Source of the DNA: Christensenella sp. UBA4626
GTDB lineage: Bacteria; Bacillota; Clostridia; Christensenellales; UBA1242
Length of the DNA: 64,000 nucleotides
Assembly: GCA_002406115.1 (NCBI GenBank)
Contig: DHNC01000035.1
Coordinates: forward strand, 23,349-87,348
Reading direction: 5' to 3'
Of this stretch, positions 3,393 to 62,541 are shown in pieces (the stretch's first letter is position 1; each line of letters starts with the position of its first letter). The notes beneath the pieces were generated by a model. It did not search any database. It saw nothing but the letters and a program-made list of their open reading frames with translations, and was not told the DNA's origin. A program made the position numbers and the translations under genes.

Positions 3393-4432
3393 ATACATTG
3401 ATTATAAATACAGCAAATGAAAATTTGGAAATTGTCTTGAAAAAGCAAGACGATATTTTTTGCAAAATTTTAAATTCAAGTTCGCATCACAACGAAACAA
3501 TGTTGCCAGCAGTGGATGAGATTTTAAAACAAAACAACTTAAATATAAAAGATGTGGACAAGGTTGGCGTGGTGATTGGCCCTGGTTCTTTCACTGGAAT
3601 AAGGGTTGGTATTGCAACAATTAAGGCGTTTAGGGATGCTTTAAATATCGAGGCAAAGGGCATAAATAATTTGGACTATCTTTTTGCCTTGGCAAGCAAA
3701 CAAAACAAAGACTGCAAAACTGTTGCAATTCTTGGCAGCAAAAATAGTTATTTTGTTGCAACGCTTGTGAATGGAATGGTATATAAATATGAAAGGAATT
3801 TGACAAAACAGGAACTTTTGGATGTTGCACAGGGCGGTGTGATTGGGATGTTTAAATATGATAGCAATCTACCATGCTTTGAAGTTGAACTTGATGCAAA
3901 AGTTTTGCTTGATTGCTTTGAAAAAAGTGTAGACCATGCGTTGGTGCCAGTGTATTACCAATTGTCGCAAGCGGAAAGTGAAAAAATTAAGCGCGCAACA
4001 CTTGAAATCAAGGAAGCAGAGGTGCAAGATTTGATAGAGGTTTGCAAAATTGAGCAAGAAACAAATTTGCCAAACAAGATGAATAAAAGCGATTTTAAAA
4101 GTTCAATCTTAAACCCTAATCATAGGCTATTTGTGGCTTGTTTGGACAAAAAAATCATTGGTTTTATGGTCGTTGAAATGACGGACGAGTTGAATATCGA
4201 AAATATTGTGGTTAAAAAGGAATATAGAAACTATGGCATAGCCACAAGGTTGCTTGAATATGCAAAAGAGTTTGCTGAGTCGGCAAAAATTGATAGGCTG
4301 AGTTTGGAAGTGTCAAAAAACAACATCACAGCATTTTTGCTTTACAAAAAATTTGGATTTGAAATTAGACGAGTTAGAAAATCATATTATTTAGATGGGT
4401 CTGACGCTTTTGAGATGGTTAAAGAGGTTTAA
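3389..4432 (+). CDS. tsaB: TsaB (t6A37 protein) fused to RimI-type GNAT N-acetyltransferase
   Basis: N-terminal GPGSFTGIRVG (TsaB). The C-terminal ~145 aa carry a GNAT motif (VVKKEYRNYGIATRLL). Overlaps the tsaE stop by 4 nt. Confidence 0.8.
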   Translation: MNTLIINTANENLEIVLKKQDDIFCKILNSSSHHNETMLPAVDEILKQNNLNIKDVDKVGVVIGPGSFTGIRVGIATIKAFRDALNIEAKGINNLDYLFALASKQNKDCKTVAILGSKNSYFVATLVNGMVYKYERNLTKQELLDVAQGGVIGMFKYDSNLPCFEVELDAKVLLDCFEKSVDHALVPVYYQLSQAESEKIKRATLEIKEAEVQDLIEVCKIEQETNLPNKMNKSDFKSSILNPNHRLFVACLDKKIIGFMVVEMTDELNIENIVVKKEYRNYGIATRLLEYAKEFAESAKIDRLSLEVSKNNITAFLLYKKFGFEIRRVRKSYYLDGSDAFEMVKEV

Positions 4433-30718: not shown

Positions 30719-30822
30719 ATTTAACTTAAAAAAACACTTTGTTTATCTATAAAATTTAAATGTTTGCAATAAACCCATTTATTTCTCTGACGTTATAAAT
30801 ATGGATGTTGTTAAGTGCAACA

Positions 30823-30859
30823 AAAAAGGAGTGATACTTAAAAGTAAAACTCCTTTTTT
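30823..30859. terminator. Hairpin terminator between convergent genes
   Basis: AAAAAGGAGT/ACTCCTTTTTT stem with a 16-nt loop. Confidence 0.55.
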
Positions 30860-59708: not shown

Positions 59709-61058
59709 ATGGGATTTTTTCAAAATTTAAGTGATAGATTAAATCATATTTTCAGCAAAATGACAAAGCGTGGCAAACTCACCCAACTGGAAATTAAAGA
59801 GGCGATGCGAGAAATCCGTATTGCACTTTTGGAGGCGGATGTCAACTATTCAGTTGCCAAAGATTTTTGTGCACGTGTAAGCGAAAAAGCGCAAGGCGAG
59901 GAAATTTTAAAAAGCCTCACACCAACACAACAAGTTGTCAAAATTGTGCGTGACGAATTGACCGCACTTATGGGCGGTGAAAATCAAAAATTGGCAGTTG
60001 CACCAAAGCCACCGACAGTTATTATGATGTGCGGCTTGCAAGGTTCGGGCAAAACAACAATGTGCGGCAAATTGGCACTCAAACTCAAAAAAGAGGGCAA
60101 AAAACCGCTTTTGGTTGCGTGTGATATCTATCGTCCAGCTGCCATCGACCAACTTAAAGTTTTGGGCAAATCAATCCAAATTGACGTGTTTGAGCGTGGC
60201 ACACAAAATCCAACAAAAACAGTTAAAGAGGCAATTGCGTATGCAGAAAAATTTGCGCTTGACACAGTGATTGTCGACACGGCCGGCCGTTTGCAGATTG
60301 ACCAAAAATTGATGGAAGAATTAAAGGACATCAAAAAGGCAGTCAACCCGACCGAAATTTTGCTTGTTATCGACAGTATGATTGGGCAAGAGGCTGTATC
60401 AGTTTCAACTGCATTTAATGACGCCCTTGATGTTACAGGCGTGGTGCTTACAAAAACCGACGGCGACACTCGTGGCGGTGCAGCGCTTTCAATCCGCCAA
60501 GTCATTGGTAAACCTATCAAATTTGTCGGCGTGGGCGAAAAATTGACCGATTTGGAGCCATTCTATCCAGACCGCATGGCAAGCCGTATTTTAGGCATGG
60601 GGGATGTGCTTACTTTGATTGATAAGGCACAAGAAGCAGTTGACGAAAAAACCGCAGCGGAAATGGAACGCAAATTCCGCGAAAATAGTTTTGATTTCAA
60701 CGATTATATCTCTCAATTAGATTCGCTCAAAAAAATGGGCGGGCTTAAATCCGTGCTTGGTATGATGCCAGGGCTGGGCGGAAAATTGCGTGACCTTGAA
60801 AATCAAATTGATGAAAAACAACTTGAAAAAAACAAGGCAATTATTCAGTCAATGACAGATAAAGAACGCAAAAATCCAGATATAATCAATGGCAGCCGCC
60901 GCCAACGTATTGCAAAGGGTGCAGGCGTGCAAGTCAGCGATGTCAACCAACTCATCAAACAATTCAACCAATCCAAAGAAATGATGCGTATGATGAAAAA
61001 TCCAAAAGCATATGGTGGGAAAATGGCAATGATTAAAAAGTTAATGGGGCAACCATAA
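59709..61058 (+). CDS. ffh: Signal recognition particle protein Ffh
   Basis: GLQGSGKTT, DTAGR and TKTDGDTRGGAALS motifs, plus a Met-rich M domain. Confidence 0.95.
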   Translation: MGFFQNLSDRLNHIFSKMTKRGKLTQLEIKEAMREIRIALLEADVNYSVAKDFCARVSEKAQGEEILKSLTPTQQVVKIVRDELTALMGGENQKLAVAPKPPTVIMMCGLQGSGKTTMCGKLALKLKKEGKKPLLVACDIYRPAAIDQLKVLGKSIQIDVFERGTQNPTKTVKEAIAYAEKFALDTVIVDTAGRLQIDQKLMEELKDIKKAVNPTEILLVIDSMIGQEAVSVSTAFNDALDVTGVVLTKTDGDTRGGAALSIRQVIGKPIKFVGVGEKLTDLEPFYPDRMASRILGMGDVLTLIDKAQEAVDEKTAAEMERKFRENSFDFNDYISQLDSLKKMGGLKSVLGMMPGLGGKLRDLENQIDEKQLEKNKAIIQSMTDKERKNPDIINGSRRQRIAKGAGVQVSDVNQLIKQFNQSKEMMRMMKNPKAYGGKMAMIKKLMGQP

Positions 61059-61108
61059 TGCTTTTGGAAAAGCATTCATCATACTAGCCATAAAATATTA
61101 TATTTTAT

Positions 61109-61186
61109 ATGAAGATGTTAAAAAATCCGAAGGCAAACGGGGGAAAGTTTGCTGTTATGAAGAAATTGATGAACGGACAGTTCTAA
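61109..61186 (+). pseudogene. Diverged duplicate of the ffh 3' end (tail copy 2)
   Basis: Encodes MKMLKNPKANGGKFAVMKKLMNGQF*, compared with the Ffh end MRMMKNPKAYGGKMAMIKKLMGQP*. No SD. Confidence 0.7.
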
Positions 61187-61215
61187 TTTCACACGGTTGA
61201 ATTCGGATTTTTTAA
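61118..61215. repeat. 14-bp perfect inverted repeat pair (TTAAAAAATCCGAA / TTCGGATTTTTTAA), 70 nt apart
   Basis: Arms read directly at 61118-61131 and 61202-61215. Confidence 0.9.
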
Positions 61216-61245
61216 CGATTGATATGCCTAACGCCAGTTTGGCAT

Positions 61246-61317
61246 ATGCGTATGATGAAAAATCCAAAAGCGTATGGCGGAAAAATGGCGATGATTAAAA
61301 AGTTAATGGGACAATAA
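61246..61317 (+). pseudogene. Near-identical duplicate of the ffh 3' end (tail copy 3)
   Basis: Encodes MRMMKNPKAYGGKMAMIKKLMGQ*. Five third-position synonymous differences from 60984-61058 and one codon fewer. No SD. Confidence 0.75.
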
Positions 61318-61348
61318 CCATTTTGTTTAAAAAAAATTGCCAAACCGC

Positions 61349-61377
61349 TTGACATATATCAAAAAACATGATAAAGT
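61349..61377 (+). promoter_or_regulatory. Candidate promoter for the rpsP operon (TTGACA-17-TAAAGT with TGn extension)
   Basis: Hexamers at 61349-61354 and 61372-61377. TG at 61369-61370. Confidence 0.55.
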
Positions 61378-61429
61378 GTAAAGTGAAATTACTTTACAGA
61401 CGTAATTAAAAAGACAAAAGGAGAAGATT

Positions 61430-61723
61430 ATGGCAGTTAAAATTAGATTAACTCGTTTGGGCGACAAAAAATCACCTTTCTATCGTGTTGTTGTTGCAGA
61501 TTCTCGTGTTGCTCGTGATGGTAAATATATCGAACAAATCGGTACTTACAATCCACTTGCAAACCCAGCAGAAATCAAAATCAACAATGAACTCGCAGCA
61601 AAATGGTTAAAGAATGGTGCTGAACCAACTGAAACCGCAAAAACTTTGCTTCAAAAAGTTGGTGTTTTGGAAGTTAAAGGCAACAGCGCTCCAAAAACCA
61701 ATAACAAGAAAAAGAAAGCATAA
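61430..61723 (+). CDS. rpsP: 30S ribosomal protein S16
   Basis: [42 protein letters not shown]. Confidence 0.95.
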
Positions 61724-61733
61724 GGAGTAGACT

Positions 61734-61967
61734 ATGCAAGAGATGTTGGAATACATTGTTAAAAATCTTGTGTCAAATCCTGATGCTGTTGAAATTGTGG
61801 CTGAAAACCAAGGTAAGACCAAGGTATACAAAGTTAAAGTTGATAGCAAAGATTTGGGTTCTGTTATAGGCAGAGGCGGATGCATTGCAAACGCAATTCG
61901 CACAGTTGTTAAATCAACTGCTGGCGAACACGCACGCATTGTTATCAAGTTTGACGAAAAAGCGTAA
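61734..61967 (+). CDS. KH-domain RNA-binding protein (YlqC/UPF0109)
   Basis: 77 aa with the GSVIGRGGCIANAIR GXXG loop. Follows rpsP. Confidence 0.85.
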   Translation: MQEMLEYIVKNLVSNPDAVEIVAENQGKTKVYKVKVDSKDLGSVIGRGGCIANAIRTVVKSTAGEHARIVIKFDEKA

Positions 61968-61971
61968 CCAG

Positions 61972-61998
61972 AAATGCGAGTTTGGCTCGCATTTTTTG
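61972..61998 (+). terminator. Intrinsic terminator or attenuator after the KH gene
   Basis: AAATGCGAG/CTCGCATTT stem followed by a T-run. Confidence 0.7.
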
Positions 61999-62043
61999 TT
62001 TGAAAATTGCTTATAGTTTGTTATAATAAATTTAGAGAGTTTT

Positions 62044-62541
62044 ATGGAAAAGTTATTAGAAATTGCAAAAATAGTTCGCCCACATGGCGTTAAAGGTGCG
62101 GTTAAAATTGTCAAATATATTGACGACAATTTTTCACATTTTTCAAAGGTGTATATCGGTCAAAAATTGCAGCCTGCAAATATGAAGTTGGTTTCAAAAT
62201 TGAACAACGATGCCTGCGTTGTGATGTTGGATATAATCAAAAGTTGCGAGGACGCTGAGAAATTTAGAAATCAATCAATTTATATCGACCGAACCGAATA
62301 TGAAGAGTATGAGGACAAGATTTATTTGACAGATTTAATCAACAAACCTCTTGTCACAACTGCCGGCAAAGAGTTGGGCGTTTTGGTGGATATTGATGAT
62401 TATGGTGCCAGTTCGATACTCACTTTCAAATGTGGTGCCGTGAGTTATCAATTGCCATATGTCGAAGCGATTTTGACATATAATCAAGACCTTGATTCGT
62501 TTGTGATTGATGAACAAGTTTTTAAGGATATCAGGATATGA
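62044..62541 (+). CDS. rimM: 16S rRNA processing protein RimM
   Basis: IAKIVRPHGVKGAVKI N-terminus and a PRC-barrel C-terminus. Confidence 0.85.
   Translation: MEKLLEIAKIVRPHGVKGAVKIVKYIDDNFSHFSKVYIGQKLQPANMKLVSKLNNDACVVMLDIIKSCEDAEKFRNQSIYIDRTEYEEYEDKIYLTDLINKPLVTTAGKELGVLVDIDDYGASSILTFKCGAVSYQLPYVEAILTYNQDLDSFVIDEQVFKDIRI

Follow-up and report, generated by a model that had tools for sequence, protein, structure and literature searches.

Gene-end replacement in described systems

Integrative elements that enter the 3' end of a gene while carrying a surrogate end are well known, as in the cases of ICESt1 and ICESt3 at fda, SGI1 at trmE and the islands of tRNA and tmRNA genes, and such elements can accrete in tandem and leave remnants behind, among them cis-mobilizable elements (CIMEs). 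In the mitochondrial atp6 gene of Allomyces, a mobile endonuclease open reading frame (ORF) brings along a surrogate C-terminal coding end. The attP(+) of CTX-phi and the attC sites of integrons are single-strand hairpin recombination sites, where one strand contains the target twice, as imperfect inverted copies, and by folding imitates a duplex site; in integrons the new units enter promoter-proximally and the older ones are pushed downstream, and Xer-dependent elements need no integrase of their own. Gene ends are also exchanged at rhs, vgrG and cdiA, where paired homologous and illegitimate recombination displaces the C-terminal part and produces arrays of orphaned 3' ends (PMC8125069). 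The orphans have no initiation signals, retain a conserved piece of coding sequence, form serial arrays that vary between strains and can re-enter the gene by homologous recombination (PMC8125069). Gene-end turnover of this kind has so far been described mainly for toxin genes. Here we describe a stack of three successive ends of ffh in a 64,000-nt stretch of DNA from Christensenella sp. UBA4626 (contig DHNC01000035.1, positions 23,349 to 87,348), called the window below. The source is an uncultured gut Clostridia bacterium whose relatives are Christensenellales-like metagenome-assembled genomes.

The displacement at rhs, vgrG and cdiA is the closest described process, and the closest footprint is left by the elements that integrate at gene 3' ends and supply a surrogate end. 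As at the toxin loci, an intact gene is followed at ffh by serial orphan 3' ends (here called tails) that keep a conserved coding piece and are devoid of start signals. However, ffh is an essential housekeeping gene, its stack has no toxin domain or immunity gene as payload and no ORF after the tails within the array, the displaced piece is about 24 codons long, most junctions break at one and the same codon instead of at variable points, and every spacer between two ends has an inverted copy of the tail and a terminal hairpin. With the 3'-end integrative elements the stack shares direct repeats of the gene end flanking the insert, expression of the newest end, serial stacking and empty sites in relatives. 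Unlike with those elements, no integrase was found at the locus or in phage collections, its units are gene-less and 100-150 bp long with inverted copies of the target inside them, and its repeats are 65-95% identical over about 75 nt rather than sharing a short identical core. The geometry of two inverted copies and the tandem arrays resemble CTX-phi attP and attC, a resemblance only; the target at ffh is coding sequence and not dif or attI, there is no single-stranded DNA replicon or cassette ORF, and no Xer- or IntI-type core motif was recognised by eye in the modules. As in the Allomyces atp6 gene, the insertion would lie in the 3' coding part, provide an in-frame replacement end and leave the original as a downstream pseudo-end, but the Allomyces element encodes an endonuclease whereas the ffh modules have no ORF of any kind.

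Three ends of one gene

A first-pass annotation of the window had noticed that the last codons of ffh recur twice downstream, each time with a stop codon, and its positions and translations for the three tails proved correct. The features of the stack and its right-hand border are as follows.

59709-61058, + strand: ffh coding sequence, 449 aa; the Pfam SRP_SPB (M domain) match stops at residue 426
60984-61108, + strand: module 1, the newest insertion, made of the surrogate tail 60984-61058 and spacer 1 (61059-61108)
60984-61058, + strand: copy 1, the expressed in-gene ffh tail of 24 codons, MRMMKNPKAYGGKMAMIKKLMGQP, ending in ...LMGQP
60988-61084, + strand: long hairpin 1, arms 60988-61016 and 61052-61084, inverted-arm score z = 5.8
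61090-61108, + strand: terminal hairpin 1, ATAAAATATTATATTTTAT, which abuts the ATG of copy 2
61109-61245, + strand: module 2, the older insertion, made of displaced tail 2 (61109-61186) and spacer 2 (61187-61245)
61109-61186, + strand: copy 2, displaced tail 2, MKMLKNPKANGGKFAVMKKLMNGQF, ending in ...LMNGQF
61117-61216, + strand: long hairpin 2, arms 61117-61146 and 61187-61216, inverted-arm score z = 10.0
61222-61247, + strand: terminal hairpin 2, ATATGCCTAAC/GTTTGGCATAT, which overlaps the first 2 nt of copy 3
61246-61317, + strand: copy 3, the ancestral ffh end, MRMMKNPKAYGGKMAMIKKLMGQ, ending in ...LMGQ, untranslated now and with its native flank attached
61349-61377, + strand: rpsP promoter-like site TTGACA-17-TAAAGT, outside and downstream of the stack
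61430-61723, + strand: rpsP (S16), the conserved right-hand neighbour

Copies 1 and 3 are identical at 64 of 69 nt (93%, blastn E = 7e-22). They form the sole significant repeat in the window, and ffh is the only gene there whose end recurs downstream; a MITE-, PATE- or REP-type repeat (miniature inverted-repeat or palindrome-associated transposable elements, or repetitive extragenic palindromes) does not fit, as no other copy of a tail or spacer was found within these 64 kb. The five differences, at tail positions 27, 33, 36, 45 and 66, are all synonymous third-position changes, as had been noted earlier, and all are transitions; the Pro codon of copy 1 is missing from copy 3. The probability of five out of five being synonymous is 1e-4 if any substitution is allowed and 1.2e-3 if only transitions are. 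A diversity-generating retroelement was rejected, because the changes (A>G, T>C, G>A, A>G, G>A) run in both directions and there is no ORF in the 372-nt spacer between ffh and rpsP. Copy 2 is more distant. The 15 identical residues first counted against copy 1 were recovered by tblastn, though over 21 residues and not 24 (E = 8e-10), and a hand count of the translations gives 17/24 with one gap. Tails in the window and in the arrays discussed below have 23-27 codons and the common core KNPKAYGGK. A CRISPR array was ruled out on the ground that the repeats consist of coding sequence (72-78 nt, 65-93% identity).

The downstream copies had been taken for displaced gene ends rather than genes, a view that gains support here. 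They are out of the ffh frame (offsets 125 and 262 nt), so extension of Ffh into them by read-through or frameshift was rejected, and neither has a GGAGG-like Shine-Dalgarno sequence upstream. They were also rejected as independent micro-ORFs on account of this lack and of the related arrays, in which the ATG of the L096-type tail 2 is frameshifted and the first codons of displaced tails are degenerate in L092, L095 and L113.

Copy 3 is the ancestral ffh end, since it has kept its native flank, adjoins the rpsP promoter region and has counterparts in the relatives L002 and L003, which end in MGQ*. The flank after the stop is also alike (TAAtcatttta vs TAAccattttg in the L002/copy 3 comparison). 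Tail 2 is found in-gene as the expressed end in L084, where it is followed by spacer 2 and by an MGGQF-type tail resembling the single tail of the congener L087. With tail 2 in use in one relative and MGQ* native to others, the earlier proposal that the copies evolved separately under coding selection agrees with the data, as does the proposal that two insertion events are recorded in the window.

Architecture of the modules

Each spacer contains two features beyond those described in the first-pass annotation, namely a partial inverted copy of the preceding tail directly after its stop codon and a short hairpin abutting the next ATG. The plan of a module is therefore a tail with its stop codon, then 0-8 nt further on an imperfect inverted copy of the 5' or middle part of the same tail, and finally the short hairpin. 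In long hairpin 1 the 5' part of the tail pairs with an imperfect inverted copy that begins at the Pro-stop codons, and the remaining tail makes up the loop; the arms of long hairpin 2 are 30 nt long and 83% complementary, with the outer 15 bp perfect. Homologues of terminal hairpin 1 occupy the equivalent place in L085, L092 and L113. Terminal hairpin 2 recurs in L082 and L099, there ahead of tail 2, and it has compensatory changes in L084, L092 and L113.

When the inverted arm was scored across 35 tails, z values of 4.6-10.3 were obtained for 11 of the 14 tails that precede another tail, and the arm was never found after last or single tails (z at most 2.7), copy 3 of the window included (z = 0.8). 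A simple tandem duplication of tail plus spacer is thus excluded, the last tails never having an inverted arm or hairpin. An invertible, shufflon-like segment between the inverted arms was rejected as well, all contigs examined having one orientation. The spacers between tails are 28-72 nt long, all with the ordered two-hairpin architecture; of the two possibilities raised in the first-pass annotation, element loss or a miniature element, this fits the miniature element and does not fit lost cargo.

The predicted RNA folds are strong: -33.8 kcal/mol (z = -4.3) for module 1, -41.1 kcal/mol (z = -4.6) for module 2 and -100.7 kcal/mol (z = -5.4) for the entire region 60975-61345, compared with -24.2 kcal/mol (z = -2.2) for copy 3 with its native flank. 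In aligned homologous modules from three lineages, 93% of cells pair and double compensatory changes are seen in seven base pairs, four of them in the terminal hairpin; none of 500 shuffles reached this number and slid controls gave at most one. G-U pairs lie on the sense strand, a placement that would point to an RNA or top-strand structure. No intrinsic terminator was called on the + strand in a consensus scan of 60700-62100, where the hairpins are long or A/U-rich so that an atypical terminator is possible, and no match was found in Rfam 15 (best hits 14-22 bits against thresholds of 37-94 bits). Spacer 1 opens with a perfect local palindrome, TGCTTTTGGAAAAGCA (window 61059-61074, within the inverted arm), which looks like the footprint of a quasi-palindrome 'correction' by template switching.

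Stacks in related genomes

A chimeric tail query to the protein database returned three proteins, one of which, P0001 (a called ORF of 74 aa), led to the Logan contig L082, the first independent array. L082 has a different stack of three tails: ffh ends in MGQP*, and after it come spacer 1, a new tail, another spacer and tail 2, with a DUF2238 gene between tail 2 and rpsP. Further searches recovered stacks of two or three tails from more than 70 contigs. These derive from independent samples and assemblers and represent at least eight other lineages within a single uncultured genus of gut Clostridia. The contigs come from ENA, JGI and Logan and had been assembled with MEGAHIT, SPAdes, by Logan or as co-assemblies. 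Besides L082 they include the following.

L084 and L085: stacks from JGI/ENA metagenomes
L092-L095: stacks from two further lineages
L096-L105: stacks; 17 contigs carry this Ffh
L111-L120: stacks; 21 contigs
L121-L130: stacks; 24 contigs

Both internal junctions of the window occur elsewhere: tail 1-spacer 1-tail 2 in L098 and L102, and tail 2-spacer 2-tail in L084. Among about 70 loci of more distant Christensenellales-like relatives there were no stacks, each having one tail and, where measured, an ffh-rpsP spacer of 65-236 nt. L093 and L094 are independent contigs that both end (at 4084) within the third tail of an array spanned by L092. Contigs ending inside an array show that the repeats break short-read assemblies, and stacks are thus probably under-counted. 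L121 of the P0035 species has, in the region 3948-4030, a third, truncated tail remnant of nine codons, MKKLMGGGF*, with a perfect 8-bp palindrome ATATGAATTTATTCATAT before it and an ordinary terminator after it; the junction lies within the tail and not at its start.

The stacks are presence/absence polymorphisms within species. A single-tail haplotype ending in MGQ* (P0105, 19 contigs) and a three-tail haplotype (P0119, 21 contigs) have ffh genes 97.6% identical, and the latter has an extra 277 nt (tail-spacer-tail-spacer) placed exactly ahead of the MGQ* tail. The L002-like species has a haplotype H2 with two or three tails and a haplotype H1 with a single tail plus a 401-aa ORFan. The search for empty sites in relatives, suggested in the first-pass annotation, was successful, with such sites found in L131-L140 and L087.

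In H1 (L002:5655-5700, L106-L109) only the last ~7 nt of tail 2 are left (ATTCTAA followed by ATTTCACAC), upstream of DUF2238. An MGQ*-type end arriving together with the 401-aa gene has therefore replaced most of the older tail-2 end, in a gene-carrying displacement. The ffh-rpsP spacer in the genus is a hypervariable islet of 312-2284 nt (L002:4347-6632; L003-L005, L015, L089, L092, L095). Its ORFans are unrelated: a coiled-coil-like protein of 401-405 aa on the minus strand, proteins of 165-187 aa and 133 aa also on the minus strand, a 316-aa ORF, and one or two DUF2238 membrane proteins. Islet ORFs tested against Pfam and PADLOC had no significant match except DUF2238.

The insertion point and sharing of modules between species

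Eight of the 11 junctions begin at one and the same ATG, next to at least five unrelated hairpin families. This ATG opens the repeated tail and is codon 426 of ffh, the very residue at which the Pfam SRP_SPB match ends. Dyad symmetry of a dif-like or serine-att kind at the tail start was unconvincing by eye.

Module 1 is found at 95% identity in another species (L082, L096-L105), the ffh body of which is only 88% identical to that of the window. In the comparison with L098, ffh is 12% diverged up to position -12, while tail 1, spacer 1 and tail 2 are only 5-6% diverged. Similarly, tail 2 is 3.8% diverged (96% identical) between the window and L084, where the upstream sequence is 7-13% diverged and the ffh body 88% identical; the bottom tails of these two loci are 29% diverged and each is native from codon 2. 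Modules less diverged than the ffh they sit in are younger than their host genes and have moved between species, with sharp ends on the left and the right.

Displaced tails as relics

The displaced tails are relics of former gene ends. In expressed tails the within-species polymorphism consists of 18 synonymous and no nonsynonymous changes. Displaced tails, in addition to the start defects given above, have a deletion (L111), an A>E change (L112) and A>T and G>V changes (P0035 species). Much of the displaced-tail polymorphism is common to the expressed alleles of single-tail strains. There are also patchwork alleles: the expressed tail of L134, L135 and L140 (L134: 5276-5347) has a run of about 20 nt, with five synonymous differences, in which it matches the middle one of the filled haplotype's displaced tails exactly, and further patchwork alleles are seen in L100 and L104 (tail 2). 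Such alleles indicate gene conversion between expressed and displaced tails, and the two kinds of copy therefore exchange sequence often.

How the stack may have formed

We favour, with moderate confidence, the explanation that the stack arose by serial and precise insertion of miniature, gene-less modules, each with a replacement gene end, and was later shuffled by recombination. Two successive insertions would have hit a single fixed site, the codon at the border between M domain and tail. Each would have added a gene-less module of about 100-150 bp composed of a complete surrogate tail that includes the stop codon, a partial inverted copy of this tail and a terminal hairpin, and the mRNA or single-stranded DNA of the module may fold into a long stem-loop around the stop codon. 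The new module would become the expressed end, and the former end would be pushed downstream to decay slowly. The result would be a last-in, first-expressed stack, in which the first tail (60984-61058) alone is translated, forming the end of Ffh. Modules would then circulate among the species of the genus, and recombination and gene conversion between tails would shuffle them further. Displacement of the former ends, the polymorphism, the build of the modules, their sharing across species and their sharp borders are shown by the data; the insertion itself was presumably precise, either site-specific or directed by microhomology, and would have proceeded with no gene carried by the element.

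Several observations weigh against serial module insertion. No recombinase, nuclease or reverse transcriptase could be linked to the modules, nor did any circular or excised form of them turn up. The sequence of the terminal hairpin varies among module families, which disfavours a single sequence-specific enzyme. The exact arrangement of the window is found only in one identical locus, L001, possibly from the same assembly. Conservation of module 2, taken over its full length, does not clearly exceed that of its flanks, spacer 2 being 13.6% diverged between the window and L084. The covariation depends on approximately three independent lineages, and template switching can create and maintain hairpins, with compensation, in the absence of selection (PMC8794818). 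Finally, polymorphism in the displaced tails is mostly synonymous (12 synonymous changes vs at least three disruptive events), so that frequent exchange with expressed copies is needed.

It is possible, and we suggest it only tentatively, that the modules constitute a new class of miniature (~100-150 nt), gene-less mobile element that homes to the M-domain/tail codon of ffh and brings its own replacement coding end. Such an element might enter as a folded single strand, the tail and its inverted copy mimicking a duplex target by analogy with CTX-phi and attC. Alternatively, it might enter as a retro-copied mRNA 3' end, as the limits of the unit are the foot of the long stem and the far end of the terminal hairpin. 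In either case a host enzyme would mobilise the module in trans.

The main rival, which we consider rather unlikely, requires no mobile element or site-specific enzyme. Fold-back template switching (tandem inversion duplication) at the quasi-palindromic ATG-/A-rich tail would have built the arrays in situ, and ordinary recombination and gene conversion would have spread and diversified them between strains. The direct-inverted-direct order and the palindromic centres at both junctions are exactly those of tandem inversion duplications and template-switch mutations. The top and bottom tails are nearly identical in L113 (a single synonymous difference, apart from the last codon and the stop, which also differ) and in L095 (three synonymous differences), quasi-palindrome correction has left signs in the palindrome TGCTTTTGGAAAAGCA of spacer 1 and in a nested 7-nt inversion in the L113 spacer, and the patchwork alleles of L134, L135, L140 and L100 show gene conversion. 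Hairpins made and maintained by template switching are known (PMC8794818). However, the flanking direct copies are heterologous in the window, L082, L084, L092 and L113. Adjacent tails of all three-tail arrays share approximately 65-75% identity and a longest common run of about 8-20 nt, a homology too low for a right-hand crossover, yet the bottom tails are native from codon 2. The terminal hairpins at the junctions are not copied from the local ffh sequence upstream of the tail. The inverted arm lies 0-8 nt past the stop in about eight distinct modules, which random remodelling of junctions would not predict, and the five out of five synonymous differences between copies 1 and 3 are a misfit with divergence in situ when one copy is neutral.

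It is improbable that the stack is maintained for a function, whether as a structured 3' untranslated region or terminator cassette for 3'-end formation and stability of the ffh mRNA ahead of the rpsP promoter, or as a reservoir of silent tail cassettes that re-enter ffh through gene conversion or deletion. The conserved hairpins with their compensatory changes, sense-strand G-U pairs and strong folds would suit such a role, as would the mostly synonymous polymorphism of displaced tails and the 20 nt over which the expressed tail of L134, L135 and L140 matches a displaced tail exactly. In addition, the direct repeats let deletion pop the stack, and L098 and L102 are one unit short. Against this, single-tail haplotypes coexist within species at similar frequency, displaced copies accumulate frameshifts, deletions and nonsynonymous changes, and the top and bottom tails often specify nearly the same peptide, with no obvious gain in protein diversity. 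The scan of 60700-62100 called no + strand terminator, and Rfam gave no match.

Highly doubtful is the idea that integrase-bearing islands or prophages with a surrogate ffh end integrated twice and lost their cargo by internal deletions, leaving CIME-like remnants. Repeated gene ends of which the newest is expressed are indeed known behaviour of elements targeting gene 3' ends, the ffh-rpsP spacer of relatives is a variable islet with unrelated ORFans, and the displacement in haplotype H1 did bring a 401-aa gene while leaving ~7 nt of tail 2. The integrase-bearing element with a tail-like attP proposed in the first-pass annotation was nevertheless not encountered: no integrase or recombinase lies between or beside the tails in the contigs examined, the 28-72-nt spacers are too short for a gene, and no viral contig in IMG/VR has the tail or the spacers (scans for the tail and the two spacer motifs, which covered IMG/VR but no plasmid or complete-genome collections, returned 0, 0 and a single chance hit). 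The literature searched contains no report of ffh as an integration or att site, only of ffs. Independent deletions would leave variable remnants and not uniform spacers sharing a two-hairpin architecture with covariation, and ordinary attL/attR footprints do not predict inverted copies of the tail.

An assembler's concatenation of strain variants of the ffh end can be dismissed: copies 1 and 3 do differ in the manner of strain variants and L093 and L094 show that assemblers are troubled by the repeats, but homologous arrays with identical junctions and ordered architecture recur in dozens of samples assembled by MEGAHIT, SPAdes, Logan and as co-assemblies, both internal junction types of the window are present in independent assemblies, and nothing else at the locus could have supplied copy 2 or the spacers as a strain variant.

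Other features of the locus and the window

The gene order around ffh is smc-ftsY-ylxM-ffh-rpsP-KH-rimM-trmD. Past residue 426 the Ffh tail is highly variable in the genus: 120 clusters (P0004-P0123) with an overall identity of 87-90% have approximately 80 distinct tails between them. There are two length classes of the tail, ...LMG[QNSG] and ...LMGG[GQN]F, and P0039 is a 471-aa read-on variant of Ffh. Far from the stack, a 38-nt palindrome, AAAAAAGGAGTGATACTTAAAAGTAAAACTCCTTTTTT, at 30822-30859 of the window resembles an ordinary bidirectional terminator with A and T tracts.

Significance

Displacement of gene ends is known from integrase-borne islands and polymorphic toxin loci; the ffh stacks extend it to a housekeeping gene that is essential and receives no payload, and they define a module that is recurrent, structured and polymorphic in populations. 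In practical terms they can serve as strain markers, and metagenome assemblies suffer contig breaks and wrongly called Ffh C-termini because of them. If the modules are indeed autonomous in cis, they would give selfish DNA a new and minimal route into an essential gene that does no harm. The stacks also offer a readable, ordered record of past recombination in uncultured gut Clostridia.

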